From positions 1-54,176 of IMG/VR virus record IMGVR_UViG_2563366830_000017: a stretch of 54,176 bases of DNA. The stretch is one strand, 5' to 3'. The notes under the pieces were generated by a model. That model was not told where the DNA came from. It made no database searches and saw only the letters and a program-made list of their open reading frames with translations. The position numbers and the translations under genes were made by a program. This DNA is from a virus. Its lineage: Duplodnaviria > Heunggongvirae > Uroviricota > Caudoviricetes. Shown piece after piece: positions 4,196 to 39,113 of the stretch (the stretch's first letter is position 1; each line of letters opens with the position of its first letter).

Positions 4196-4993
4196 TTAAA
4201 CTGCTAGTTGCAATTGCATTTCAAAGCGGTCGCGTTGTTCACAATACGCAAGAGAACCAGGGCTATTGTGTGCCTCAATCCGTTCTACCATTAATGCTGC
4301 GCGTGTCTCTTTACTTGCAGGTGCATAAGCCCCAGACCAGGCTTTATCAATACCGATGTTTCGAGCGACGTTCGTACTATCTGCGCTGGCTAAGGGTAAT
4401 TTTGTGAATATCAGCGGATTTAACATGCGCAATCCATGTAGTTTCGTAACCGGCTGACCATGCCCATCAACAATGTGACGAATCAGGTCTTTCATTCTGG
4501 CTACCGCAAGAGTTGGGCGCTTTACGTCATAGTCGCCACAACTACCGATAGCCACTCGCGGAAACTCATTGCACAAATGAATAAATCGCTCGTCACTTTC
4601 ATTCATGTGCCACACTGGAACGCCAGCTAGTTTTCCGTGAGGCCACTCATTCAGAAGCGCATCATTTTCCTCCTCTCCGCCATCAATAACATCCGGGATA
4701 ATGGCAAAATCGAATCCTGGGTGATTCTTCCAGCGAGCAACAAACTCGTAGTAATCGCTCCAGTCGATTTTGTTTTTGCCAGCTGCTTTCCAGGCGGTGA
4801 ATGCACCGTTGTCCAGCGCGAACGACTGACAGTATTCAGTCGCGAGATTGATCTGGCCTGAATGCGCAAAACTGATAAACGCATGTCGCCCTTTCCATGC
4901 TCTCATTGCGCACGTATCAGGAGTAATAGGCCCACCGTGGTAGTGAATCATCTCACTCTCCTTTGATGCGAATGCCAGTAGCGCGGATTGCAT
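4196..4993 (-). CDS. Hypothetical protein (265 aa), b-region accessory gene
   Basis: Long ORF in operon with neighbours; no family confidently recognised. Confidence 0.55.
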   Translation of the reverse strand: MQSALLAFASKESEMIHYHGGPITPDTCAMRAWKGRHAFISFAHSGQINLATEYCQSFALDNGAFTAWKAAGKNKIDWSDYYEFVARWKNHPGFDFAIIPDVIDGGEEENDALLNEWPHGKLAGVPVWHMNESDERFIHLCNEFPRVAIGSCGDYDVKRPTLAVARMKDLIRHIVDGHGQPVTKLHGLRMLNPLIFTKLPLASADSTNVARNIGIDKAWSGAYAPASKETRAALMVERIEAHNSPGSLAYCEQRDRFEMQLQLAV

Positions 4994-6311: not shown

Positions 6312-6992
6312 TCATCGCCATTGCTCCCCAAATACAAAACCAATTTCAGCCAGTGCCTCGTCCATTTTTTCGATGAACTCCGGCACCATCTCGTCAAAAC
6401 TCGCCATGTACTTTTCATCCCGCTCAACCACGACATAATGCAGGCCTTCACGCTTCATACGCGGGTCATAGTTGGCAAAGTACCAGGCATCTTTTCGCGT
6501 CACCCACATGCTGTACTGCACCTGGGCCATGTAAGCCGACTTTATGGCCTCGAAACCACCGAGCCGGAACTTCATGAAATCCCGGGAGGTAAACGGGCAT
6601 TTCAGCTCAAGGCCATTGCCGTCACTGCATAAACCATCGGGAGAGCAGGCGGTACGCATACTTTCGTCGCGATAGATGATCGGGGATTCAGTAACATTCA
6701 CGCCGGAAGTGAATTCAAACAGAGTTCTGGCGTCGTTCTCGTACTGTTTTCCCCATGCCAGCGCCTTAGCATTAACTTCCGGAGCCACACCGGTGCAAAC
6801 CTCAGCCAGCAGGGTGTGGAAGTAGGACATTTTCATGTCAGGCCACTTTTTTCCGGAGCGGGGTTTTGCTATCACATTGTGAACTTCTGAAGCGGTGATG
6901 ACGCCGAGCCGTAATTTGTGCCACGCATCATCCCCCTGTTCGACAGCTCTCACGTCGATTCCGGTACGCTGCAGGATAATGTCCGGTGTCAT
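6312..6992 (-). CDS. exo: Lambda exonuclease (Red-alpha)
   Basis: 226-aa [43 protein letters not shown]... matches lambda Exo. Confidence 0.97.
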
Positions 6993-26719: not shown

Positions 26720-26740
26720 GCCGCCTGTGCGGCTTTTTTT
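26720..26740 (+). terminator. Hairpin plus T-run between D and E (terminator/attenuator-like)
   Basis: GCCGC-CTGT-GCGGC followed by TTTTTTT. Confidence 0.45.
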
Positions 26741-26753
26741 ACGGGATTTTTTT

Positions 26754-27029
26754 ATGTCGATGTACACAACCGCCCAGCTGCTGGCGGCAAATGAGCAGAA
26801 ATTTAAGTTTGATCCGCTGTTTCTGCGTCTCTTTTTCCGTGAGAGCTATCCCTTCACTACGGAGAAAGTCTATCTCTCACAAATTCCTGGACTGGTAAAC
26901 ATGGCGCTGTACGTTTCGCCGATTGTTTCCGGTGAGGTTATCCGTTCCCGTGGCGGCTCCACCTCTGAATTTACGCCGGGATATGTCAAACCCAAGCACT
27001 TAGCATGGCTTTCTGAGGCTTTCGTGTAG
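26754..27029 (+). pseudogene. E: Major capsid protein E, 5-prime fragment (82 lambda-like codons then 10 foreign codons and stop) created by insertion
   Basis: MSMYTTAQLLAANEQKFKFDPLFLRLFFRESYPFTT...GYVKPKH matches lambda E; then LAWLSEAFV-stop. Confidence 0.9.
26989..26998. repeat. Left copy of 10-bp direct repeat AACCCAAGCA at island junction
   Basis: Identical 10-mer at 38323..38332; lambda-like E sequence ends here. Confidence 0.75.
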
Positions 27030-27110
27030 TTGCTGGTTTTTACACTTAATCTTTTGATAATAAAGAATAAGTTTATCTGGCGCTTTCACTGAATTTTCCT
27101 CGTTATCTGT

Positions 27111-27146
27111 GTGTTGCAATCATCTCTGTATTGCAGCTTGTATTGC
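27111..27146 (+). repeat. Candidate integrase arm-type sites: three copies of TGT(A/G)TTGC(A) near left end
   Basis: GTGTTGCA, TGTATTGCA, TGTATTGC read in sequence; two more TGTATTGCA copies at 38227..38247. Confidence 0.45.
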
Positions 27147-27161
27147 TTTTTGGGGCTAAAA

Positions 27162-28397
27162 ATGGCTGGCGAGAACAAACTGAGCGACAAAGCGCTTAAA
27201 GGATATCTGGGGAAACCCAGAGAAAAGCAGATCACCATTGCTGATGGAAAGGGGCTTTCTATTCGTGTGAGTACTAAAGGGGCTGTGAGCTTTGTTTTCT
27301 TCTACAGGTTAGCAGGTGGCCGGGCTGCTCCGGTCTGGCTAACGTTGGGTAAATATCCTGATATGTCACTCAAACAGGCAAGGGAAAAGCGCGACGAGTG
27401 CCGTGGTTGGTTGGCTGACAAACGTGATCCGCGTATCCAGATTAAGATTCAGGCTGAAGAACGCTTAAAGCCGGTCACAGTGGAGGATGCACTAAATTAC
27501 TGGTATGAAAACTACTGTAAGGTGCGTCGTAAAACTCATGCTGTAACGCTTGGCAGATTTCGAAAGCATATCTTTCCCTATATCGGTCATTTGCCCGTAA
27601 ATGACACTCACCTATATGAATGGCTGGACTGTTTTGACCGAATTAAACGTAATGCACCAGTTATGGCGGCGTATGTTTTTTCTGACACTAAATTAGCTCT
27701 TCGTTTTTGTCGGGTACGCCAGTACGCGACGTGTGATGCTTTAAAGGATTTGCGCATGAGTGATGTGGGGCAGATTGCAGGTAAGCGGGATCGGGTTCTG
27801 GATGAAGCCGAACTCGGCCAGCTCTGGAAGGCAATTTTTGTCGAGCCTGATTTAAAACTAATGTCTGAATACACGCGAAAAATGTTTGTGCTTTGTACAG
27901 TATTTGGATGTCGAATGAGTGAAGCCCGATTATCAGAATGGAGCGAATGGGATCTCGAAAGTTGGGTTTGGACTGTGCCAAAAGATCACTCAAAAACTGG
28001 TGTTGAAATCGTCAGACCAGTACCTGAAATTCTACGACAGTGGGTAACGGATGTTCACGAAGAGACAAAACATACTGGTTATGTGCTGGGAAGTCTGCGA
28101 ATTAGAGAAAGCGTAAGCAAGATTGGGGGGAAAATCGGTAAACGTTTGGGCCATGAAAAACAATGGTCACTACACGACCTTAGAAGAACGCTATCTACTC
28201 ATCTAAGTGATCTCGGTGTTGAATTTTATGTAGTAGAACAACTGTTAGGCCATGCGCTACCTGGCGTGGCAGGTGTTTACAACCGGAGTAAGTTTATGGC
28301 TAAAAAACTGGATGCTCTGGAACTCTGGACTACATATCTCAATAGCATCGCAGCTGCTGATTCAAAAGTGACAATCCTCAAACAAAAGGCTGGTTAG
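27162..28397 (+). CDS. Tyrosine integrase, P4-type (island-encoded)
   Basis: 411 aa from ATG; C-terminal HxLRxT...HxxxxxxxxY-like catalytic region (HELR...HDLRRT...LGHA...VY); adjacent to left junction. Confidence 0.85.
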   Translation: MAGENKLSDKALKGYLGKPREKQITIADGKGLSIRVSTKGAVSFVFFYRLAGGRAAPVWLTLGKYPDMSLKQAREKRDECRGWLADKRDPRIQIKIQAEERLKPVTVEDALNYWYENYCKVRRKTHAVTLGRFRKHIFPYIGHLPVNDTHLYEWLDCFDRIKRNAPVMAAYVFSDTKLALRFCRVRQYATCDALKDLRMSDVGQIAGKRDRVLDEAELGQLWKAIFVEPDLKLMSEYTRKMFVLCTVFGCRMSEARLSEWSEWDLESWVWTVPKDHSKTGVEIVRPVPEILRQWVTDVHEETKHTGYVLGSLRIRESVSKIGGKIGKRLGHEKQWSLHDLRRTLSTHLSDLGVEFYVVEQLLGHALPGVAGVYNRSKFMAKKLDALELWTTYLNSIAAADSKVTILKQKAG

Positions 28398-28398
28398 C

Positions 28399-28629
28399 AT
28401 GAAAAAAATGGCAATTGTTGATAAAAAGGGTCTGGAGTACATTCCTAACATTGACCGAATGATCCGTGAGAAAGAATGTCGGGAGCTAACTACTCTTGCG
28501 AACAGCACACGCTGGAAGCTGGAGAAGGAAGGAAAATTTCCTAAGCGGATCAAGATTGGTTCCACTGCTGTTGCATATCGTCTTTCAGAAGTGCAGGCAT
28601 GGATTCGAGGTGAGTGGGAAACAACTTAA
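28399..28629 (+). CDS. AlpA-family HTH regulator/excisionase-like protein
   Basis: 76 aa; placed immediately after integrase as in P4-like and PICI elements. Confidence 0.7.
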   Translation: MKKMAIVDKKGLEYIPNIDRMIREKECRELTTLANSTRWKLEKEGKFPKRIKIGSTAVAYRLSEVQAWIRGEWETT

Positions 28630-28636
28630 CTATTAG

Positions 28637-29467
28637 GTGGGCATTGTGGCTATATTTCATTATACAGATCTTTTTGGTTTGAAAGGTATATTAGACTCTA
28701 ATTCTTTATGGGCTACAAACATATATTTCTTAAATGATAAAGAGGAGTCTAACCATGGATGTGAATGCTTTCGAAATACAATTAAAATAGTTGATGACAA
28801 TATCATTCCAAAAGATAAGAAAACTATTTTGCTCAAGTCTCTTGACATGTATGAGAAAGGGAGGTTACAAAAAGAAAAAGGGATTGATAAACATGTTTAT
28901 AGCATCTCTTTTTGTAAGGAAAACGATAAGTTAAGTCAGTGGAGAGGTTACGGAAATAAACAGGGTGTTTGCATTGAGTTTGATGCGGATGAACTTGTGA
29001 GCTTTTCTCAAAATATTTATTTAAATTGTGTTGCACATGATGTTATATATTCAAATAATAACGATATTACTAAGATGAGTAAGGAGTTGGGAGAGTTTTT
29101 TTCTTGTAATGGTATTAACATTAAAGAAATGAATGATCATTTTGTAACAATGGTCTCTACGTATCAATTTATATCTAAATACATCCCATTTTTTAAACAT
29201 CCTAGTTTTATCGAAGAGAATGAATTTAGATTGGTATTTACTCCGTGGATGCAAATGCCAGATGTGCACTTCAGAATAAATAATAATGGAATCATCCCTT
29301 ATATCATCATTGATAATAAAGATAATAGAAAGTTACCAATTAAAAGCATTACAATTGGCCCGACAAACGATTATGATTTCATTGAGGCTGGTATAAAAAT
29401 GTTCTTGGATTCAAGAGGATTTAGTTCTGTGGAAATTAAATCCTCATCAATTCCATTCAGGGGGTAA
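28637..29467 (+). CDS. DUF2971-like protein (AT-rich cargo gene)
   Basis: N-terminal FHYTDLFGLKGILDSNSLWATNIYFLNDKEE resembles the DUF2971 signature as I recall it; GTG start; low GC. Confidence 0.55.
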   Translation: MGIVAIFHYTDLFGLKGILDSNSLWATNIYFLNDKEESNHGCECFRNTIKIVDDNIIPKDKKTILLKSLDMYEKGRLQKEKGIDKHVYSISFCKENDKLSQWRGYGNKQGVCIEFDADELVSFSQNIYLNCVAHDVIYSNNNDITKMSKELGEFFSCNGINIKEMNDHFVTMVSTYQFISKYIPFFKHPSFIEENEFRLVFTPWMQMPDVHFRINNNGIIPYIIIDNKDNRKLPIKSITIGPTNDYDFIEAGIKMFLDSRGFSSVEIKSSSIPFRG

Positions 29468-29598
29468 GGATTAACACTTTTAATCTGTGATATTATAAAA
29501 ATGGTGGATAAAGGCGACCAGAATTGGTCGCCAATGTGAGTATATAGTTAGCCTTAATCAGAATACGAGGTTATCGCCTGATAGGCAATGTGAACAGT

Positions 29599-29955
29599 TC
29601 AATATTTAGGTGGTTCAACAAGAGCGTTTATCATTGCTCTCAAATTATCGCGAACACTTATCCAAGTCTGTTCTGCTCGTTCTAACTCATCAGTGTACAA
29701 CTTTAATGTTTTATCTATGCCATATGTGGCTATTAAATTTATAGCTTCTTGTAATTTTTCAGGATTATTCCTTCTTGGGGGAGTGAATATACCACGGATT
29801 TTTCCGGTAATTAAAGCTTTACGGTGTCTACATAGAATACCTTTACTTCCTGCTGGACAATTACAAGTCATGATTAGCGAGCCAGAATCGTTTGATACAG
29901 TGACTATGTATACATCCAAACTACTGCTACTTGTTGCGAAGAATTCGTATTTCAT
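29599..29955 (-). CDS. SWIM-type zinc-finger protein (CxCx8CxH), AT-rich cargo gene
   Basis: Motif CNCPAGSKGILCRH seen in translation; convergent with DUF2971-like gene. Confidence 0.5.
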   Translation of the reverse strand: MKYEFFATSSSSLDVYIVTVSNDSGSLIMTCNCPAGSKGILCRHRKALITGKIRGIFTPPRRNNPEKLQEAINLIATYGIDKTLKLYTDELERAEQTWISVRDNLRAMINALVEPPKY

Positions 29956-29982
29956 GTGTTAGCTCCTTGACTTCAATTATTC

Positions 29983-30114
29983 TTATCCTTTTGGTTCAAT
30001 ACCGCGCCGTAGCAGCTCTTTGCGCCCTAATTCTTTAAGCCAGTTGGCTAGGCTTATGCCGTCGCTCTGCGCTTCTTTGTCGAATTGCTCTTTTAGCTCT
30101 GGAGAAATTCGCAT
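29983..30114 (-). CDS. Small basic protein, possible ribbon-helix-helix repressor (43 aa from ATG)
   Basis: MRISPELKEQFDKEAQSDGISLANWLKELGRKELLRRGIEPKG; divergent from downstream plus-strand operon. Confidence 0.4.
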   Translation of the reverse strand: MRISPELKEQFDKEAQSDGISLANWLKELGRKELLRRGIEPKG

Positions 30115-30313
30115 TCTGAATTGTGGAGATTGCCCATCACCCTTAGGACTTTTATCGCGTTTGATCGTTGACAAGTGACCACCTATTGAATTAGCCTTTT
30201 CATTGTTAGGTGGCCACCTTAACACGGGGGCACTTAAAAAAGCAAAGCCCGAAGGTGCTGGGAACACCAACGGGCTTCTAACCACCAACGATAGCAACAG
30301 TATCGAGGTAGCT

Positions 30314-30517
30314 ATGAGAAATCATACCACACACCCGCAAGGGCGGGACCCGCACAACCTGAATAAATACATCTGGCGTTTTATCGCCTTGAGTACGGCA
30401 CAACCGCGCATGATTACCATCGAGGCCATCAGCGAACAGGAAGCCCGCCAGCAATCCCCAACTGGCTGCGTGATGGTATTCGCCGCCCGTATTCGTCAGG
30501 AGGTGTGCCGTGCTTAA
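30314..30517 (+). CDS. Hypothetical small protein, first gene of island early operon
   Basis: ORF track 30203..30517; ATG at 30314 chosen. Confidence 0.4.
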   Translation: MRNHTTHPQGRDPHNLNKYIWRFIALSTAQPRMITIEAISEQEARQQSPTGCVMVFAARIRQEVCRA

Positions 30518-30695
30518 AACCTTCCGTGTATTTGCCCGAGCTGTTAACCCACTGGGCCACACAATTGGTATCACTCAGAACGTGAAGGCTGTTAATGTTC
30601 AGACGGCTATTGCTGCGGTGAGAAGCGAATCATCAGAATATGGCTTATCACAAGTCATTATTTCAGCAGTGTATGAATTAAAAGAGGTGCATTAA
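30510..30695 (+). CDS. Hypothetical small protein
   Basis: 61-aa ORF, overlapping starts/stops in operon. Confidence 0.45.
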   Translation: MLKTFRVFARAVNPLGHTIGITQNVKAVNVQTAIAAVRSESSEYGLSQVIISAVYELKEVH

Positions 30696-30886
30696 TGCAG
30701 GAAATCACATTACACGAAGCCGCTGAACGTGCGCACCAGACAGAAATTATTTGCCGCCTTCTTGAGGTATACCCGAACAAAATTACAGATGCTGATATAT
30801 CCGCGCTGGCGAGCCTACTGGCGCGCCTTTCGGGAAGTGTCGCTAGTTTCCTGATTGAGGAAGAAAGTAAGCTGGTGGGGGATTAA
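30695..30886 (+). CDS. Hypothetical small protein
   Basis: 63-aa ORF, translationally coupled in operon. Confidence 0.45.
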   Translation: MQEITLHEAAERAHQTEIICRLLEVYPNKITDADISALASLLARLSGSVASFLIEEESKLVGD

Positions 30887-31108
30887 ATGAATACAGAACG
30901 GGAAGTCTTTTTTAAATTGTTAGCATGTGCAGAAAGTCCATTAACTTTAAATAATTCAGCAAAAGCAATATTAAATATGTGGCTTGATTGCATAAATGAC
31001 AATGAAGATGCAAATATTGCTTATGGCCTGTTGTCACTTATTGATGAATCAGCAGAAAAACTCAATGACGCAATAAATAGTGCCCTGCTATCAAATAAGT
31101 CGAGTTAA
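30887..31108 (+). CDS. Hypothetical small protein
   Basis: 73-aa ORF in operon. Confidence 0.45.
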   Translation: MNTEREVFFKLLACAESPLTLNNSAKAILNMWLDCINDNEDANIAYGLLSLIDESAEKLNDAINSALLSNKSS

Positions 31109-31125
31109 GTCGAGGAATAAATAAT

Positions 31126-31425
31126 ATGGAAATGAAAAATTCTGGCTTTATTGCCAGCGGCCCCGCTCGGCCTGAATTTATGAACGGCGATATTTACCGC
31201 GATAAATACGGCGGCACGGTAACGATTAAAGGCGTGGCAGAACGGCGCATCACTTACCGCCGTGAGGGGTATAGCTATGACTGCGTGATGCCTGTTTATC
31301 AGTTCCGGCGTGATTTTTCCCTGGTATATGCCGCACCCCGCAGTAAGCCCATCAGCAGGGAAAAAGCGCGGGGAAACATCCAGAAAATGAAAAGCATGAT
31401 TAACGCATTCAGGGGCAAAAAATGA
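31126..31425 (+). CDS. Hypothetical protein (99 aa)
   Basis: ORF immediately upstream of and overlapping primase start. Confidence 0.5.
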   Translation: MEMKNSGFIASGPARPEFMNGDIYRDKYGGTVTIKGVAERRITYRREGYSYDCVMPVYQFRRDFSLVYAAPRSKPISREKARGNIQKMKSMINAFRGKK

Positions 31426-33173
31426 AACTGGCACCGAACTTAAAAAAACAGCCACGCGACAGACTGACAGAGGTAATCATCTTTGCAGGTAGTGATGCGT
31501 GGAGCCATGCGAAAGAGTGGCGGGAATGGGCGGGTAAACATATTGCCGCCGACGATGTGCCGCCTGTCGTGCTGGCTGATGAGCAACTGAAAAATATCAC
31601 CGATTACCGGATCATTGATGAAGATCGTCAGTGTGTGCGTGTTTACCGCGCAGGACATATCACAGAGCACAGCATGACGCAGATTGTTACGTTACTGGCT
31701 GTGGCTGGAGTGAAGACCGTACACGAATACGCGGGGATTACTGACACCAGCCCAGTGGATTTATCCGAGCAGTTGCCGCGACTCAAAGAGGAATGCGAGC
31801 GTGGGGAAAGTCTGGTGCTTAATCTTCCGACGAAGCAAAAGGCGCAACTTTCACAGATGGCAGACAGTGAACGTGCACAACTACTTGCCGATCGCTTTGA
31901 TGGTGTGTGTGTTCATGCAGAAAGTGAAATCGTCCACGTATGGCGCGGCGGGGTATGGTGTCCGGTCAGCACAATGGAGCTGAGCCGCGAAATGGTGGCG
32001 ATCTATTCAGAGCACAGGGCCACGTTCAGCAAACGTGTAATCAATAACGCCGTGGAAGCGTTAAAAGTTATTGCCGACCCCATGGGGGAGCCGTCCGGTG
32101 ATTTGCTACCGTTCACTAATGGTGTGCTTAACCTGAAAACGGGGGAATTTTCTCCGCACTCGCCGGAGCACTGGAGCACCACGCACAATGGCATTGAGTA
32201 CACGCCACCAGTAGCAGGGGAAAACATCCGCGATAATGCGCCAAATTTCCATAAATGGCTTGAACATGCCGCAAGAAAAGACCCGCGCAAGATGATGCGT
32301 ATATGTGCCGCGTTATACATGATTATGGCGAACCGCTACGACTGGCAGATGTTCATTGAGGCCACCGGAGACGGGGGAAGCGGTAAGAGTACATTTACCC
32401 ATATTGCCACCCTGCTTGCTGGCAAACAGAACACCGTAAGCGCGGAGATGACATCACTCGATGATGCAGGAGGGCGCGCGCAGGTTGTCGGGAGTCGTCT
32501 TATCGTCCTTGCCGATCAGCCGAAATATACGGGGGAAGGCACGGGCATCAAGAAAATCACGGGAGGCGATCCCGTTGAAATTAACCCGAAATATGAGAAG
32601 CGATTCACGACGATAATAAGGGCGGTGGTACTGGCAACCAATAACGACCCGATGATCTTTACCGAACGGGCCGGAGGTGTGTCACGCCGTCGGGTGATTT
32701 TCCGGTTCGACAACATTGTAAGGGAGGACGAAAAAGACAAGGAATTACCGGAAAAGATAGCGGCAGAAATCCCCGTAATTATCCGCCGCTTGCTGGCTAA
32801 TTTTGCTGACCCTGAAAAGGCACGGGCTTTATTACTGGAACAGCGTGACGGTGATGAAGCTCTGGCAATAAAGCAGCAAACGGATCCGGTTGTTGAGCTT
32901 TGCGCGGCGCTGGAGTTTCTGGAGGAAGCTCGTGGGCTAATGATGGGCGGTGGTGGTGACACCGTGAAGTACACGACCAGAAACAGCCTTTACCGTGTCT
33001 ATATGGCCTTCATGGCATACACAGGAAAGGGGAAATGTTTGAGCGTGAATGAGTTCGGAAAGGCTATGAGGTCAGCGGCGAAAGTTTACGGATATGAATA
33101 TATTACGCGAAAAGTTAAGGGAGTCACGCAGACCAACGCAACGACTACTGATGATTGCGATGCGTTTTTATAA
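31422..33173 (+). CDS. Primase/replication protein (P4-alpha C-terminal-like, with Walker A GDGGSGKST)
   Basis: 583 aa; P-loop GDGGSGKS seen; followed by iteron array. Confidence 0.8.
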   Translation: MKLAPNLKKQPRDRLTEVIIFAGSDAWSHAKEWREWAGKHIAADDVPPVVLADEQLKNITDYRIIDEDRQCVRVYRAGHITEHSMTQIVTLLAVAGVKTVHEYAGITDTSPVDLSEQLPRLKEECERGESLVLNLPTKQKAQLSQMADSERAQLLADRFDGVCVHAESEIVHVWRGGVWCPVSTMELSREMVAIYSEHRATFSKRVINNAVEALKVIADPMGEPSGDLLPFTNGVLNLKTGEFSPHSPEHWSTTHNGIEYTPPVAGENIRDNAPNFHKWLEHAARKDPRKMMRICAALYMIMANRYDWQMFIEATGDGGSGKSTFTHIATLLAGKQNTVSAEMTSLDDAGGRAQVVGSRLIVLADQPKYTGEGTGIKKITGGDPVEINPKYEKRFTTIIRAVVLATNNDPMIFTERAGGVSRRRVIFRFDNIVREDEKDKELPEKIAAEIPVIIRRLLANFADPEKARALLLEQRDGDEALAIKQQTDPVVELCAALEFLEEARGLMMGGGGDTVKYTTRNSLYRVYMAFMAYTGKGKCLSVNEFGKAMRSAAKVYGYEYITRKVKGVTQTNATTTDDCDAFL

Positions 33174-33179
33174 AAAATG

Positions 33180-33430
33180 GCAATGGTTATCTACCTTGTC
33201 TACCTGACTGAAAGAAAATACTTTTATTTCAATGTATTAATGCAGGTAGATAACTATTTTTCACTGTCTACCTGTTATCTACCTTATCTACCCATTTTTG
33301 TAGACAGGTAAGGAGACGGGTAGAGATGAGGTAGACAGCTATTTGGGGCTGTCTACCTCCCTGAAACCCGCGCCATTACTGGCCTGATAACTAATCAGGT
33401 AGACAAGGTAGACAAGGTGGTGGTGCACAA
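33180..33430. repeat. ori: Island replication-origin iterons (GGTAGACA / TGTCTACC family, both orientations)
   Basis: At least 10 copies of (A)GGTAGAC(A) or its complement within 250 bp directly after primase gene. Confidence 0.75.
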
Positions 33431-33462
33431 AAAACTTTTTAAACGAGGGGGTAAAAATAAAA

Positions 33463-33720
33463 ATGCACACATCAGGAAAACTGAACAAACATATAAAGCC
33501 ACATTACCGCGCCCTTGATATGGCTGAACACTGGCTAAGGGTGGCGATTAAGGCAATAGACCGCAACGCCGGGGAAGGATACGCGAAAGCACATCCCGAA
33601 CTGATAAGCGCATTCATGACAACGGCGGCTGCAAACTTTGCCACGCTGACCGAACGGGAGATTGCTGAAGCGGAGGAAGTGACAACAATCAATATTAAGT
33701 CCGGAGAGCAGGCAGCATGA
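33463..33720 (+). CDS. Hypothetical protein (85 aa)
   Basis: ORF overlapping ssb start. Confidence 0.45.
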   Translation: MHTSGKLNKHIKPHYRALDMAEHWLRVAIKAIDRNAGEGYAKAHPELISAFMTTAAANFATLTEREIAEAEEVTTINIKSGEQAA

Positions 33721-34166
33721 CGGCGCAAATATCAGTTTACGGGCGGTTGGTGGACGACCCGCAGACAAAACAGACCAGCAAGGGCACCCCCATGACGCTG
33801 GCGCGTATGGCGGTATCACTGCCCTGCAGTCAGTCGGATGACGGTCTGGCGACGTTGTGGTTATCTGTCCTGGCGTTTGGCAGACAAGCCGACGCGCTGG
33901 CAAAGCATCACAAAGGCGAACTCCTGAGCGTGGCGGGTAACATGCAGATGAGCCAGTGGACTGGACAGAACGGCGAAACGCGGCAGGGCTGGCAGGTTAT
34001 CGCAGACAGCGTAATCAGTGCGCGATCGGTGCGACCGGGCGGCAAAAAAGGCCAACAGGGGCAGGCTACTGACGCACTGAACAGAGCAAAACAACAGGCA
34101 GATCAGCAAGGAAGCCAGCCACCAGAGGGAGATAATGAGCAATGGGGAGATGATATCCCGTTTTAA
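33717..34166 (+). CDS. ssb: Single-stranded DNA-binding protein
   Basis: OB-fold-like N-region, Gln/Gly-rich linker and acidic C-terminal tail ending DDIPF. Confidence 0.85.
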   Translation: MTAQISVYGRLVDDPQTKQTSKGTPMTLARMAVSLPCSQSDDGLATLWLSVLAFGRQADALAKHHKGELLSVAGNMQMSQWTGQNGETRQGWQVIADSVISARSVRPGGKKGQQGQATDALNRAKQQADQQGSQPPEGDNEQWGDDIPF

Positions 34167-34382
34167 ATATTGCCAATAAAAAAAGCCGGAAAAAATAAAT
34201 TTTCCGGCATGCTACATAAATCCCGACCAAAGGGAGTGAAGATATTAACACTAATTGTCCGCACTGAAGTTGTCACCCCAAAACTTTATACAACATTGCA
34301 CTCGGTTGCATGTGTTCGCATGACAAATATCGGTGATAGCATATATCCACAATTATTTTTAATGAATGCAAAGAGGATGCGT

Positions 34383-35423
34383 ATGGTTGATTTATATTCG
34401 CCTACTCAGCTTGTACAGGTAGTTAATGCTGTAGATGTACAAAAACAACTAAATGCGTTATTTACCAGTTTGTTTTTTACTCGCTCGGTAATGTTTGAAT
34501 CGCGCGATATTATTCTTGATACAATCGACGATCCAAATATCCCAATTGCAGCGTTTTGTTCTCCTATGGTGGGTAGTAAAGTTTCACGTGACGAAGGGTA
34601 CGAATCAAAAACAATTCGTCCAGGCTATATGAAGCCGAAAAGCAGCATTGATCCAAATAAGTTAGCTGTGCGCCCTGCTGGTGTGTCACCTGAGCAATAC
34701 AATGCTTTTGGGGCGCGTAATATTAAAGTTAAACAGGCGATTGTAAATCAGGCTAAAGCTATTCGTGCACGTATTGAATGGCTTGCTGTTCAGGCAATCA
34801 CAACGGGGAAAAATATCATTGAGGGCGATGGTATTGAACGTTATGAGCTGGACTGGAATATAAAACCACAAAATATCATCACTCAGTCTGGCGGTACTGA
34901 GTGGTCAGGTAAGGATAAAGAAACTTTTGATCCAAATGATGATATTGAGAGCTACGCAGAATTTAGTGAGGGCGTCACTAATATCATCATTATGGGTGGT
35001 AATGTATGGAAGAAATACCGTTCATTCAGAGCGATAAAAGAGGCTTTGGATACCCGTCGTGGTTCTAATTCCGAACTGGAAACGGCCCTTAAAGACCTTG
35101 GTGATTCGGTGAGTTTTAAAGGGTATATGGGCGATGTTGCGATTGTTGTTTACAGCGGGCGTTATACCGACGAGGACGGAACAGAAAAACATTTCCTTGA
35201 TCCTGATTTGATGGTGCTTGGCAATACGGCTCTTCAGGGGATTGTCGCCTATGGCGGTATTCAGGATCCGGAGCTAATCCGAATGGGGCTGACTAAAGCC
35301 GAACTTGCACCGAAAAACTATATTGTGCCTGGTGATCCGGCTATTGAATATGTGCAGACACATTCAGCACCACAGCCAATACCGGCCCGCATCAATCGTT
35401 TTGTTACCGTTCGCATTGGCTAA
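34383..35423 (+). CDS. Island-encoded major capsid protein, diverged homolog of lambda E
   Basis: Blocks shared with prophage E: NIITQSGGTEWSGKDKETFDPNDDIESYA, LDTRRGSNSELETALKDLG, YMGDVAIVVYSGRY, MVLGNT; ORF track 34170 start is upstream. Confidence 0.85.
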   Translation: MVDLYSPTQLVQVVNAVDVQKQLNALFTSLFFTRSVMFESRDIILDTIDDPNIPIAAFCSPMVGSKVSRDEGYESKTIRPGYMKPKSSIDPNKLAVRPAGVSPEQYNAFGARNIKVKQAIVNQAKAIRARIEWLAVQAITTGKNIIEGDGIERYELDWNIKPQNIITQSGGTEWSGKDKETFDPNDDIESYAEFSEGVTNIIIMGGNVWKKYRSFRAIKEALDTRRGSNSELETALKDLGDSVSFKGYMGDVAIVVYSGRYTDEDGTEKHFLDPDLMVLGNTALQGIVAYGGIQDPELIRMGLTKAELAPKNYIVPGDPAIEYVQTHSAPQPIPARINRFVTVRIG

Positions 35424-35432
35424 GGGGGAGCA

Positions 35433-35774
35433 ATGGCTACTCATTACACTGAACTCATGGCTGGCACTGAAGCACTGGTGACTACGCTGGGGATATTTTC
35501 AGCTAATAAAGGGGTAATTCCTGCATTTACGCCACTGATGCAGGAAGATGCAACAGGTGCACTGGTGGTATGGGATGGTTCGAGCGTAGGTAAAGCGGTT
35601 TATGTTTCCGCTGTACAAATCGACACCGCGAAAAAAACACAGGCTCAGGTCTATAAGACAGGTGTCTTAAATGTTGATGCTCTGAACTGGCCTGAGTCTG
35701 TTAAAGAACTGTCAGTAAAGATTGCAGCGTTTGTTGGCTCAGGTATTTCTGTTCAGCCGCTGGCTCGTGTGTAA
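35433..35774 (+). CDS. Island-encoded decoration protein, diverged homolog of lambda D
   Basis: THYTEL, FTPLMQEDATGALVVWDGSSVGKAV, YKTGVLNVDALNWPE, AAFVGSGISV align with prophage D motifs. Confidence 0.8.
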   Translation: MATHYTELMAGTEALVTTLGIFSANKGVIPAFTPLMQEDATGALVVWDGSSVGKAVYVSAVQIDTAKKTQAQVYKTGVLNVDALNWPESVKELSVKIAAFVGSGISVQPLARV

Positions 35775-35785
35775 AGGGGGATACA

Positions 35786-36169
35786 ATGCAGAATGATTAC
35801 AATGACCTTAAGCCAATTGCCGAAATGATGTACCCGAATCCAGCTGTAGAGGAATTAAAAGCTATCGCTGACAAAATGTGTTTAAGCGAGCGCCTTGTTG
35901 ATATGAATCAGGTGATGGAAATTACAACCCTGAGTCGTCGTACACTGCTAAACCTTGAGGCTAGTGGAGAGTTCCCGGAGCGTGTGCAGGTTACGGAAGG
36001 GCGTAAGGCCTGGTATTTAAGTGAAGTGATCGACTGGATAAATAATATTCCTCGCGCTTCTGAATATTGCCGCGTACCTGTCCCAAAAAAGCCAGATGCG
36101 GCGCTATGCCTCAAGATTGAGCGTGTACGCCGCAATGCACGGGATGGTCGCTATAAGCTGATTGGTTGA
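35786..36169 (+). CDS. HTH protein (AlpA/MerR-like C-terminal half) immediately upstream of island cos
   Basis: 127 aa; segment MNQVMEITTLSRRTLLNLEASGEFPERVQVTEGRKAWYLSEVIDWI looks like AlpA-type HTH. Confidence 0.55.
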   Translation: MQNDYNDLKPIAEMMYPNPAVEELKAIADKMCLSERLVDMNQVMEITTLSRRTLLNLEASGEFPERVQVTEGRKAWYLSEVIDWINNIPRASEYCRVPVPKKPDAALCLKIERVRRNARDGRYKLIG

Positions 36170-36194
36170 TGAAATTAGGGCCCGCTCTGGCTGG

Positions 36195-36400
36195 CGGGTC
36201 CTTTCCGGTGATCCAGAACGTTACGGGGCGTCAGGCGCGCAGATTCTTGCTATTTATGACAATTTTCTGCGATTTGCCGTTTCCGTTCTTCTTCCTTGTA
36301 ACTTATTGTTTTTACTAGAAATACCCTCTAAAAAGAAAGGAAATGACAGGTGCTGAAAACAGGCTTTTGGGTCTCCGTCATTTCCTTTCTCATTTTTATC
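36195..36400 (+). other. cos: Island cos-like site, same orientation as prophage cos
   Basis: GGGTCCTTTCCGGTGATCC...ACGTTACGGGGCG...CGCG...GCTATTTATGA...AAAAAGAAAGGAAATGACAGGTGCTGAAAAC aligns block-by-block with 20591..20800. Confidence 0.8.
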
Positions 36401-36652
36401 TAAAAGTAAGCATCGAGGCCACCCCAAATGCTTATAGAGGTTATTGTGTCACTATGCGTACTGTTCAGGATTTAAAGTAGCAAGACATCTAGTTGCTTGC
36501 AGTTTTGGCGAATGATGTGAGGTTCTCTATAACAGATAATGTAACAAGTTACTGATATATTCTGTTATGGTTGACTTTAAATTTTGTTGCTCCTTCAATG
36601 AATTATTGAGGGGTAAAAATTAGGCGTGATAAGAATCGATCACGCCTATTGT

Positions 36653-37969
36653 TTATCTTGAAGAAATTTTAGGCAGGCTTTTTAAAAATAAATCTTTATT
36701 TCTACTTGCATCAGTTAAAAGTGTTAGGAATATTTTATCTGTAGGAGTGCATGTGCTCTTGTTTAACAGTAATTCACCAAGTTTCTGTAATCGAGAGAAT
36801 TGCCCATCCTCTTGGATTCTGTGACGAAGTGTACTATCATTTTTAATAACATCAACAAATGCAGAAACCATATTAATATCAAAGTGTTCAAACATTTCCA
36901 ATATTAAAGGTGCAGCCCCATTTGAATAAAAATTCTTCCTTCCATACTGATAGCTGAAACCACGATGGCCAACATAAGTTTTTGTAATGGCTGAAACAAA
37001 TTCAACAATATTATCTTCAGGGACGAAACTCGAGAATGGTAATAATTGGGTTACGATTTTTTCCTCTTCTGACCAATTATCTAAAGACTCGGTGAGTTTA
37101 TTAATGAGAGGCTCAATAATAACTTTTCGGGATGCAGGGCTAATATACATCAGTCCATCTACCAATAGTATGAATTGTTGTGCCTTCTCTATCTTATTGT
37201 TGTTTCCTGAAACTAAATACTTGTCAAATTGTTGGCCGACTTTACGTCGGTCGTCTTTTGAAAGTAATGTCCATAAAATAGGTGCGCAAAATTCAATGTT
37301 GTTTCTGAGTTCACTTGATATATTGGATGAGCAGTATGTGCCAAAAAAACGAGAGGATAATTCACTGATATAAATTGCAGGTAGATCTGAAAAGGCTTGC
37401 TTAACTGCCAGACTATTTTTATTAAATGTTGCCGAATCCATTTCTGAAAGATATGTAGTTATATCTATGATGGCTGGTGGAAACTCTTTAGAAAGAACGT
37501 ATTTATTACAATCATTAATCAGGTTCACTACTTTGATTAAATCAGGGTCGCTACTTTGTGGATGTCCACCAAATAGATTCCTGGTTTCTCTAGCTTGTTG
37601 TAATAGTTTCTGACCTTCTCGATCGATAACTCCTATTTTAAATGCTCCATCTATTAAATCAAAGTCGCTCACATAATCCTGAAAATCTTCATACGTTTTA
37701 ATTTCTTTTTTTTGTTTACACTCTTTGTTGAATAGATCTAGGCTACGATGAATTATCTTTTGACGTAAATCATCAACTACAGCATTCCAGTAAGCAGTGA
37801 TGGCACTTCTATAACCTTTTACAGGAAGAACTCTTATTGCTTCTGAAATATATGGGCAGTCAACTACATCATGCCTCACAGTTGAGAGCGCAGTTTGTAA
37901 CAATGTAACTTCTGTAGAGTCTAGTGGAGTTGGCTGCACTAAATGAGAACTTATCTCTGTACCCTTCAT
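36653..37969 (-). CDS. Hypothetical 438-aa protein, AT-rich cargo gene between island cos and right junction
   Basis: Low GC; contains R-x5-H motif (RNLFGGH); no family confidently assigned. Confidence 0.6.
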   Translation of the reverse strand: MKGTEISSHLVQPTPLDSTEVTLLQTALSTVRHDVVDCPYISEAIRVLPVKGYRSAITAYWNAVVDDLRQKIIHRSLDLFNKECKQKKEIKTYEDFQDYVSDFDLIDGAFKIGVIDREGQKLLQQARETRNLFGGHPQSSDPDLIKVVNLINDCNKYVLSKEFPPAIIDITTYLSEMDSATFNKNSLAVKQAFSDLPAIYISELSSRFFGTYCSSNISSELRNNIEFCAPILWTLLSKDDRRKVGQQFDKYLVSGNNNKIEKAQQFILLVDGLMYISPASRKVIIEPLINKLTESLDNWSEEEKIVTQLLPFSSFVPEDNIVEFVSAITKTYVGHRGFSYQYGRKNFYSNGAAPLILEMFEHFDINMVSAFVDVIKNDSTLRHRIQEDGQFSRLQKLGELLLNKSTCTPTDKIFLTLLTDASRNKDLFLKSLPKISSR

Positions 37970-38322
37970 TTCAGGATTTTCCTATTCTTTTCCATTTTTC
38001 TACTCTATTGAATTTGAAAAAGATATCAAGTTCGTTCTTGCCAGTTTTAAGTGGAAAATTTGATGTTACCTTATTGAGATAAGGCAGTTCTCTATAACCT
38101 ATTGTTATTAATTATTTTTATTTTTTTCCAATTCAGATGTTTAGGGCTAAGAAGTTAAGTGAGAGTTCACAGCAAAACTGCTTCTAGTTCCTCACCGAGG
38201 AGCAAAAGGTTAAGACAGCGTACTTTGTATTGCACAATGTATTGCAGAACCTTCTTTCGAAAGCTACAACAATCAATTTTATATTGAAAATTCAATCATA
38301 TCCTTTCGATATTGACTCATAT

Positions 38323-38332
38323 AACCCAAGCA
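38323..38332. repeat. Right copy of 10-bp direct repeat AACCCAAGCA at island junction
   Basis: Identical to 26989..26998; lambda-like E sequence resumes here. Confidence 0.75.
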
Positions 38333-39113
38333 TGAAGTGAATCCGCAGATGACCCTGCGTCGCCTGCCGGATGAAGATCCGCAGAATCTGGCGGACCCGG
38401 CTTACCGTCGCCGTCGCATCATCATGCAGAACATGCGTGACGAAGAGCTGGCCATTGCCCAGGTGGAAGAGATGCAGGCAGTTTCTGCCGTGCTTAAGGG
38501 CAAATACACCATGACCGGTGAAGCCTTCGATCCGGTTGAGGTGGATATGGGCCGCAGTGCGGCCAACAACATCACGCAGTCCGGCGGCACGGTGTGGAGC
38601 AAGCGTGACAAGTCCACGTATGACCCGACCGACGATATCGAAGTCTACGCGCTGAACGCCAGCGGCGTGGTGAATATCATCGTGTTTGATCCGAAAGGCT
38701 GGGCGCTGTTCCGTTCCTTCAAGGCCGTCAGGGAGAAGCTGGATACCCGTCGCGGCTCTCATTCCGAGCTGGAGACAGCGGTAAAAGACCTGGGCAAAGC
38801 GGTGTCTTATAAGGGAATGTATGGCGATGTGGCCATCGTCGTGTATTCCGGACAGTACGTGGAAAACGGCGTCAAAAAGAACTTCCTGCCGGACAACACG
38901 ATGGTGCTGGGTAACACTCATGCACGCGGTCTGCGCACCTATGGCTGCATTCAGGATGCGGATGCATTGAGTGAGGGTATTAATGCGTCTCCCCGTTATC
39001 CGAAAAACTGGAAGACATCCGGCGATCCGGCGCGTGAGTTCACCATGATTCAGTCAGCACCGCTGATGCTGCTGGCTGACCCTGATGAGTTCGTTTCCGT
39101 ACAACTGGCGTAA
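38323..39113 (+). pseudogene. E: Major capsid protein E, 3-prime fragment (codons ~80-341)
   Basis: PKHEVNPQMTLRRLPDEDPQNLADPAYRRRRIIMQNM...EFVSVQLA matches lambda E C-terminal 260 aa. Confidence 0.9.

Follow-up and report, generated by a model that had tools for sequence, protein, structure and literature searches.

In the satellites of Gram-positive bacteria, induction takes place when a master repressor is inactivated by a helper protein, and in P1 and P4 the regulatory small RNAs are cut from a sense transcript and act on repeated target sites. In the structure of P22 Arc with its operator, Q9 and N11 are the base-contacting residues. For the phage-inducible chromosomal islands (PICIs) of Gram-negative bacteria, the founding paper left a global repressor unclear and identified only the activator AlpA (PMC6092414). 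In Escherichia coli K-12, the -10 box of the antisense RNA gene symR lies inside the first codons of its target open reading frame (ORF), mutating this box (CATTCT) inside symE abolishes symR, and there is a site for LexA in the promoter of symE (Kawano et al. 2007, PMC1891008). Here, we studied positions 29,983 to 31,425, together with the primase gene that follows, in a stretch of 54,176 nucleotides that makes up the IMG/VR virus record IMGVR_UViG_2563366830_000017 (Caudoviricetes; this whole stretch is called the window below, and coordinates are its own unless stated). We found that this region is likely a two-layer immunity switch, consisting of a protein and an RNA, that heads the replication operon of a Gram-negative PICI, which sits within a capsid gene belonging to a lambdoid prophage.

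The switch would be built around the gap between a minus-strand repressor gene and the first gene of a rightward operon. An earlier note on this DNA had described the genes on both sides and overlooked what the gap holds, namely operators, a promoter that overlaps a start codon, and an antisense RNA. The elements are the following:

29983..30174, minus strand: gene of an Arc-like ribbon-helix-helix (RHH) repressor, 63 aa; TTG start at 30174, stop at 29985-29983.
30168..30197, plus strand: predicted rightward promoter P_icd; -35 TTGACA at 30168-30173, 18-nt spacer, -10 TAGCCT at 30192-30197.
30173..30184, no strand: predicted operator O1, AAGTGACCACCT, an imperfect palindrome, from co-variation with RHH residues 18 and 20.
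30208..30219, no strand: predicted operator O2, AGGTGGCCACCT, a perfect 12-bp palindrome with its centre 35 bp from that of O1.
30216..30224, minus strand: predicted repressor promoter P_RHH, extended -10 TGtTAAGGT, overlapping the left half of O2.
30236..30313, minus strand: predicted SymR-like cis-antisense RNA of about 78 nt, from covariance model R1 and fold, with putative ends.
30321..30329, minus strand: predicted promoter of the antisense RNA, extended -10 TGGTATGAT, inside codons 3-5 of the Icd-like gene.
30314..30517, plus strand: Icd-like gene, 67 aa (NCBIfam NF033153, E 6e-19, 67.8 bits against a cut-off of 25; ratio of nonsynonymous to synonymous substitution rates, dN/dS, 0.30-0.41).

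The earlier note had reported a basic minus-strand protein of 43 aa with a possible RHH fold; the protein is real and has this fold, while the given length is too short, as the 43-aa ORF (ATG 30114) covers only the C-terminal two thirds of a 63-aa protein. Related loci encode a 63-aa protein that begins MSTIKRDKSPKGDG, and the 55 relatives found by database search, in Providencia, Proteus, Morganella, Xenorhabdus, Erwinia, Dickeya, Serratia and other genera, are mostly 63-64 aa long and conserved from residue 2 on, with invariant S2, R6, D7, G12, G14, P17 and F19. Because these homologues are conserved from MSTIKRDKSPKGDG onward, we place the true start at TTG 30174, four bases downstream of a GGTGG Shine-Dalgarno sequence. 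The dN/dS of the repressor gene is 0.05-0.11 (versus EcCIEDL933 and two other loci), and as judged from these ratios the gene is under strong purifying selection. Together with values of 0.23-0.56 for the five plus-strand ORFs, this indicates that all six ORFs behave as coding sequence.

Several lines of evidence support an Arc-like RHH fold. The family profile matches P22 Arc (E 0.011), aligning kGdGksPqFkiR with Arc's KGMSKMPQFNLR, PQFRMR of the repressor with PQFNLR of Arc, and residues 18 and 20 with Arc Q9 and N11, at an identity to Arc of 23-26%. In the AlphaFold monomer model (pLDDT, the predicted local distance difference test score, 82.6) helices span residues 25-37 and 42-56 and the beta-strand is not formed; the top Foldseek matches in the PDB are Arc (1myl/1par, prob 1.0, TMt 0.77-0.88), followed by AmrZ, CopG and RHH antitoxins, and the best matches are almost all RHH proteins. 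The protein also matches PHROG 228, 'Arc-like repressor' (1.2e-6), and stays below the Pfam cut-off for Arc (PF03869, 12.5 versus 20.4 bits). It has no match to the YlcI/YnfO family (NCBIfam NF041551) at E up to 1.

We compared 79 loci that encode relatives of the repressor, and almost all share one architecture, with 130-140 nt between the repressor start and the first divergent gene (140 nt in the window). In about 75 loci, paired palindromes occupy the same places as O1, which fills the spacer between the two boxes of P_icd and also covers the start codon and Shine-Dalgarno sequence of the repressor gene, and O2, which lies just past the predicted start of P_icd transcription (probably near 30204). 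The outer AGGT/ACCT is constant between loci and the operator core varies with residues 18 and 20 of the repressor: T,Q goes with ACGT, Q,R with GACC, Q,K with GGCC, A,Q with ACAC, and M/L,N with ATAG. This mapping has a purity of 0.92 over 74 loci, which none of 10000 permutations reaches (no phylogeny correction). On such comparative evidence, the RHH protein would bind O1 and O2 through its beta-strand.

The promoter elements around the operators are conserved as well. The -35 TTGACA of P_icd overlaps the first two codons of the repressor gene; codon 2 is TCA in all 64 loci with Ser at this position, the other strand reads TTGACA in 64 of 70 loci, and a -10 with A2 and T6 follows at 16-18 nt in 66 of 70. 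The invariant TCA in the Ser2 loci points to a constraint beyond the protein. At the P_RHH site, TAnnnT occurs in 55 of 70 loci (46 with TG), compared to about 20% in shuffles, and the overlap of this -10 with O2 suggests that the repressor regulates itself. In agreement with the earlier note, by which such a divergent layout usually holds a repressor, the 63-aa RHH protein is very probably the repressor of the divergent primase operon.

The second layer would be the antisense RNA. From its 5' end, it consists of a long hairpin that carries the complement of the Shine-Dalgarno sequence (H1, 30313-30279), a G+C-rich terminator hairpin (H2, 30277-30245), and a U-run (30244-30236, a T-run in the DNA); it is complementary to the leader of the Icd-like gene, including the Shine-Dalgarno GAGGT at 30305-30309, and this gene is its presumed target. 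By analogy with K-12, the RNA would start near 30313, and the U-run would place its end near 30236. The 57 non-identical homologue sequences all fold into two hairpins in the same way (median -33.9 kcal/mol, mean z -4.6). In each of the 57, the structure is more stable when read on the repressor strand than on the icd strand, with an average difference of 12.3 kcal/mol, and 17.5% of the pairs are G-U, so we assigned the RNA to the minus strand. When 29 sequences are aligned with MAFFT, 88.7% of the alignment cells pair, versus 31-50% for slid partners, and double changes are seen in 21 of 28 pairs, versus 5-8; none of 500 shuffles reaches the observed values.

Covariance model R1, built only from RHH-linked loci on a subtype-consistent seed, matches the window just once, at 30316-30232 on the minus strand (58.8 bits, E 2.8e-13), and has one match beside nearly every repressor gene. 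In the R1 alignment (75 sequences, fitted to the model), 89.9% of cells pair and compensatory changes affect 22 of 28 pairs. RNAalifold on the first MAFFT alignment recovered hairpin 1 only; this shortfall results from terminator arms being misaligned between subtypes and was overcome by the subtype-consistent seed and the covariance model.

The predicted promoter of the RNA is embedded in coding sequence. The first divergent gene varies between loci and encodes an Icd-like protein, a SymE-like protein or a 176-aa protein, all of which start MA-x-x-(H/S)-(S/T)-T, and the DNA just 5' of this gene is conserved despite the differing genes. TAnnnT (the T, A and T of the -10 hexamer) is invariant in the 57 aligned loci, inside the first codons of these unrelated target genes. 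The common MA-x-x-HST N-terminus of unrelated first genes is thus explained by an antisense promoter embedded in their codons.

This RNA is, on comparative grounds, a distant relative of SymR that here would guard an Icd-like gene. R1 matches K-12 SymR over its full length (26.9 bits, E 1.5e-6, with 6 kb searched and filters off), and the Rfam symR model (RF01809), which scores K-12 SymR at 95 bits, has a consensus structure with the same two-hairpin layout. The SymE-type sister loci encode true SymE homologues (PF08845, 8e-17) and carry a CATTCT/TAGAAT box identical to that of K-12, and the TATGAT box of the window stands at the homologous aligned position. At the place taken by O2 in the window, K-12 has, in our own reading, a LexA-box-like sequence. 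The SymR family extends well beyond the narrow Rfam model, and its RNAs may guard Icd-like genes. Esr41, a known small RNA of enterohemorrhagic E. coli, was considered and set aside: it lies in another island (OI-43) and has an Rfam model, which has no match here.

The window is E. coli DNA, and an identical stretch in strain TO73 (locus L001) reveals a lambdoid prophage resembling Qin whose major capsid gene, gpE-like, is split by an island of about 11 kb (about 27030-38325), with parts of the interrupted gene at 26727-27029 and about 38337-39113. The gene order of the island is int, alpA, a DUF2971 gene, a SWIM gene (minus strand), the region studied here, primase, an 85-aa ORF, the gene of a single-stranded DNA-binding protein (SSB), capsid, decoration, and a second AlpA-like gene. 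The island thus has the marks of Gram-negative and helper-embedded PICIs: int with alpA, primase with SSB, late genes, co-orientation, a length of about 11 kb, and a position in a prophage late gene. This gene content supports the element being a satellite of the Gram-negative PICI type, as the earlier note had held in calling it a satellite. Its own capsid (34383-35423) and decoration (35433-35774) genes are 32-45% identical to those of the prophage. No direct repeat of at least 12 nt that could serve as att was found at the island ends; the published identity block is 10 bp.

Downstream of the Icd-like gene, the operon continues as follows:

30510..30695, plus strand: 61-aa ORF (phrog_3672), overlapping the Icd-like gene by 8 nt, 95% identical to the EcCIEDL933 copy; dN/dS 0.31.
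30695..30886, plus strand: 63-aa ORF (phrog_1478), TAATG overlap of 1 nt; dN/dS 0.23.
30887..31108, plus strand: 73-aa ORF (phrog_2196), directly abutting the previous stop; dN/dS 0.56.
31126..31425, plus strand: DUF4222 protein gene, 99 aa (PF13973, 9e-24); dN/dS 0.25-0.50.
31422..33173, plus strand: P4-family primase gene, the end of the operon under the proposed control (TIGR01613, 9e-30; phrog_864, 3e-161).

The coordinates and junctions of the five small ORFs of 61 to 99 aa that lead into the primase are those given by the earlier note, and their overlaps, their one abutment, and the single 17-nt gap before the DUF4222 gene, which is followed by an ATGA overlap of 4 nt onto the primase gene, make a layout compatible with the translational coupling it had proposed. 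Its statement that all of these ORFs are unannotatable does not hold: the first is Icd-like by NF033153 (and is also named so by PGAP in the identical locus), the fifth is a DUF4222 protein, and all five match PHROG families at 1e-28 to 1e-45. Helper sensing or interference, which it had ascribed to such genes, found no support for the middle three (61, 63 and 73 aa), which have no match in Pfam, NCBIfam or PADLOC; PADLOC gave no match for any of the six small proteins. PHROG 6196 and 1743 label Icd-like families 'transcriptional repressor', at odds with the NCBIfam name. This label may stem from the P4 record, in which a 137-aa 'cI gene product' drawn over the CI RNA is still listed as a transcriptional repressor; BLASTP of this P4 'cI ORF' against the Icd-like protein gave no match.

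At 33186-33415, in the stretch that separates the stop codon of the primase gene from the 85-aa ORF, an iteron (TRTCTACCT / AGGTAGAYA) occurs at least 10 times, in both orientations, and this cluster is probably the replication origin of the island. Two genes lie between alpA and the repressor gene, the DUF2971 gene (28637-29467, plus strand) and the following:

29599..29955, minus strand: SWIM zinc-finger gene (PF04434, 2.6e-5), 27 nt downstream of the repressor gene.

The SWIM gene is probably co-transcribed with the repressor gene and lineage-specific. Both genes have weak PADLOC matches to candidate defense systems (PDC-S31, 1e-4; PDC-S62, 5e-5) and may be defense cargo in a variable zone of the island. 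After the island capsid and decoration genes comes the second AlpA-like gene (35786-36169; PF05930, 7.6e-9); the second AlpA copy of EcCIMP1 targets excision of the helper and not the island (PMC11773190). Near the right end, a 438-aa ORF (36653-37969, minus strand) has no PADLOC match.

The sequence and its comparison between loci show the repressor protein and the class of its fold, the operators and how they co-vary with this protein, the conserved promoter elements, the structure and strand of the RNA, and its SymR kinship; we infer transcription starts, binding, repression, toxicity of the Icd-like protein, and the inducing signal. In the first layer of the proposed switch, the 63-aa RHH protein at O1 and O2 would shut P_icd and with it the Icd-like gene, the four small ORFs that follow, and the primase gene; since O2 overlaps the extended -10 of P_RHH, the repressor would also shut its own promoter. 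In the second layer, the antisense RNA of about 78 nt would be made constitutively, from the extended -10 in icd codons 3-5 to its intrinsic terminator, and would pair with the leader and Shine-Dalgarno sequence of the Icd-like mRNA, so that translation of the toxin-like Icd protein would be blocked as SymR blocks that of SymE. The RNA would thereby neutralize leaky Icd-like mRNA at the ribosome-binding site, and the overlapping or abutting ORF junctions would probably carry this damping to the downstream ORFs. With strong rightward transcription, the sense RNA would outrun the antisense RNA, both layers would be overridden, and the operon would be on. Such a rise may be caused by loss of repression, by AlpA, or, as the island is embedded, by late read-through from the helper, which could also collide with the two leftward promoters.

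Several points weigh against this interpretation. AlpA is described as the master activator of these islands, with no repressor reported (PMC6092414). All transcription starts and the 3' end of the RNA are predicted from sequence, the -10 of P_icd in the window is weak (TAGCCT), and the antisense promoter has no recognizable -35 in the window and depends on its extended -10. A consensus scan of the intergenic region for promoters and terminators found nothing, which we attribute to the -10 boxes being weak or extended and to the terminator stem having an internal loop. The operator-residue and covariation tests ignore phylogeny, and many of the loci are related. With R1, the RNA of EcCIEDL933 reaches no more than 25 bits. 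Rfam symR has no match in the window at the gathering threshold, nor in 29900-30700 at E up to 10; Rfam 15 finds nothing relevant at the antisense-RNA site, and an Rfam scan of 14 related loci found tRNAs and an int-alpA RNA only, with no symR. Because Rfam symR misses the antisense RNA, the SymR link rests on our own R1 model. Finally, toxicity of the Icd-like protein is assumed from its family name and one preprint.

The rival that survives best, which we nonetheless consider rather unlikely, is that the locus is a type I toxin-antitoxin or abortive-infection module and not an island induction switch, with the Icd-like protein as toxin, the SymR-like RNA as antitoxin, and the RHH protein as an extra lock, so that the cell would be killed or arrested when a phage perturbs transcription or RNA turnover. 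The same cassette does precede bona fide SymE toxins and the 176-aa protein outside any primase operon. In ECOR61, a primase-linked Icd-like gene is needed for growth arrest triggered by a phage gene, and the Icd-like protein with linked genes including the primase is the likely effector of phage-triggered cell death (preprint 10.1101/2023.04.06.535777). In satellites, however, small ORFs overlap or abut from the Icd-like gene into the primase, so that control of icd transcription means control of the replication operon too. The toxin-antitoxin explanation and the immunity switch do not exclude each other, and the cassette may also be a defense module.

The remaining alternatives concern the single components. 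That the hairpins are a cis-acting element in the sense leader of the Icd-like mRNA (an attenuator, a thermometer or a protein-binding site) is very improbable: the region does lie within the predicted 5' leader of the operon and a structure on one strand is mirrored on the other, but the sense strand is the less stable one in every one of the 57 loci (by about 12 kcal/mol on average), 17.5% of pairs become A-C mismatches on it, the U-run follows the hairpin on the minus strand only, the conserved -10 box is directed leftward, and the family includes the experimentally proven SymR. We give just as little credence to the RHH protein being a type II antitoxin with the SWIM protein as its toxin. 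The NCBI name of the homologues is 'HicB family antitoxin', the Pfam HicB model (PF05534) scores 20.3 bits, just below its cut-off of 21, and a same-strand gene follows at 27 nt. However, only the DNA-binding RHH part is present, there is no HicA, and the predicted operators lie on the promoter of the divergent operon; among 82 loci, no conserved partner gene follows the RHH gene, a co-directional ORF of at least 50 aa being nearby in only 23 and these forming no family. The HicB name therefore does not fit, and the type II toxin-antitoxin reading was rejected. Least credible of all, and likewise rejected, is a P4/P1-like immunity in which a sense-strand CI/c4 RNA is processed from the leader and pairs upstream of icd, since, although P4-type CI and seqA RNAs are reported in some PICIs (PMC10111431) and c4 RNA lies upstream of icd in P1, the Rfam C4 (RF01695) and isrK models find the P4 CI and seqA RNAs (C4 at 74.9 bits) but have no match in the window, even when E values of up to 10 are allowed, R1 has no match on P4, and the structured RNA here is on the opposite strand.

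We also estimated how widely the cassette occurs. Of 5426 complete E. coli genomes, 1361 contain matches to parts of 29983-30335, mostly to the RNA and the start of the Icd-like gene; coverage of this query reaches at least 80% in 209 genomes. Searches of phage databases gave almost nothing, with three weak DNA matches and one protein match. Both elements of the proposed switch, an RHH protein and the RNA, are present in two experimental model islands. EcCICFT073 encodes an RHH protein of the YlcI/YnfO type (NF041551, 7.9e-19), has two GTGGGCCACACCT repeats around a TTGACG promoter and the antisense RNA (R1, 43.4 bits), and continues into an operon of an Icd-like gene, four small ORFs, DUF4222 and primase; its RHH protein shares position and fold class with that of the window at only 18% identity. 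EcCIEDL933 carries the RNA and a 63-aa RHH gene. Islands at the cspD site encode another RHH protein, which has 59 aa and belongs to the YlcI/YnfO family, together with the RNA and an Icd-like gene, and the RNA is also present in a packaged 16.5-kb satellite. Across Enterobacterales, the RHH-plus-RNA cassette precedes Icd-like, SymE-like and other genes. Cassettes of the SymE and 176-aa types adjoin a tRNA-Sec gene, about 0.9-2.5 kb from the RHH gene, in six loci of Citrobacter, Enterobacter and Atlantibacter (L046, L050, L054, L059, L080, L049), which suggests remnants of islands at the selC site. One Superficieibacter locus (L056) holds two repressor-plus-RNA cassettes, at 4866-4952 and 6785-6871 of that locus, about 1.9 kb apart.

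RefSeq annotation at the repressor site is often wrong, as in the identical genome (L001) and in islands L002 and L003, and the RNA is never annotated. In L001 a plus-strand pseudogene (L001 22985-23251) is drawn over the repressor site, and long plus-strand ORFs of 247-403 aa run antisense to the repressor gene at L002 5561-6304 (labeled as protein WP_001304194.1), L003 5854-6531 (labeled as a pseudogene) and L004 2323-3534. We rejected these as real genes, for their ends lack conservation and dN/dS in the RHH frame is 0.05-0.11; by all appearances these are shadow ORFs, which mask the true repressor gene and the RNA.

The analyses above offer a concrete candidate at the place where a regulator is expected, namely a small Arc-like repressor, often unannotated or mis-annotated, with operators that match it and a SymR-type RNA in front of the replication operon. 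A literature search, with most subscription journals outside it, returned no description of this switch; the parts are of known kinds (an Arc-like repressor and a SymR-type RNA), while the combination, its target, and its presence in model Gram-negative PICIs appear undescribed. Tentatively, as a speculation that goes further, the RHH-operator-antisense-RNA cassette might be the so far missing master switch of immunity in Gram-negative PICIs, EcCICFT073 and the capsid-forming EcCIEDL933 among them, and helper phages would induce the island when they override this switch through AlpA, an anti-repressor or late read-through; the Icd-like protein might double as an abortive-infection effector, the cassette might be a portable 'toxin lock' recombined before unrelated toxins across Enterobacterales, and matched repressor-operator classes might give each element a private immunity.

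Among described elements, the type that matches the present island is the helper-embedded PICI Eco567.11capE (Mageeney et al. 2023, PMC10111431), which according to the available passages of that paper is the same kind of 11-kb island in capsid gene E of a lambdoid prophage, carrying int, alpA, primase and SSB as well as capsid and decoration genes that belong to the island. The difference is that the RHH gene, the operators and the antisense RNA are not described in those passages, which mention C4/isrK-type RNAs in some PICIs only and call the annotated genes unidirectional. With the c4-icd-ant region of P1 and the CI system of P4, the locus shares a small RNA controlling a phage or satellite operon that starts with an Icd- or kil-type gene, and an RNA target in the leader or ribosome-binding region; here, however, the RNA would be an antisense transcript in its own right, made from a predicted promoter distinct from that of the operon. 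The likeness to Stl/Rpr of the Gram-positive PICIs (Staphylococcus aureus pathogenicity islands, SaPIs) is a repressor gene divergent from an excision and replication operon, whereas here the repressor is an unrelated 63-aa Arc-like RHH protein and the antisense RNA forms a second layer. We know of no helper anti-repressor for the present switch. A further difference from Stl/Rpr is that the known regulator of Gram-negative PICIs is the activator AlpA (PMC6092414).

Like P22 Arc (and Mnt, in the immI region), the repressor is a small protein of the RHH type that has an N-terminal arm, a beta-strand reading PQF-x-x-R, and predicted operators in pairs over promoters, and it is probably autoregulated; Arc is its top match by both profile and fold. 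It differs in that the operators are different, a satellite operon is controlled rather than the ant gene, and specificity variants with matched operators exist. With SymR/SymE, the locus shares a -10 box within the first codons of the target, two hairpins of which the terminal one is a terminator, a length of about 77 nt, UGGUUAG/UGAUUAG common to both RNAs, and a sense promoter, here under predicted repressor control, just past the 3' end of the RNA. Unlike in K-12, the target here is Icd-like rather than SymE and heads the replication operon of a satellite, and the sense promoter would be guarded by an Arc-like repressor dedicated to it, acting at operators of its own, while K-12 symE has its LexA site.

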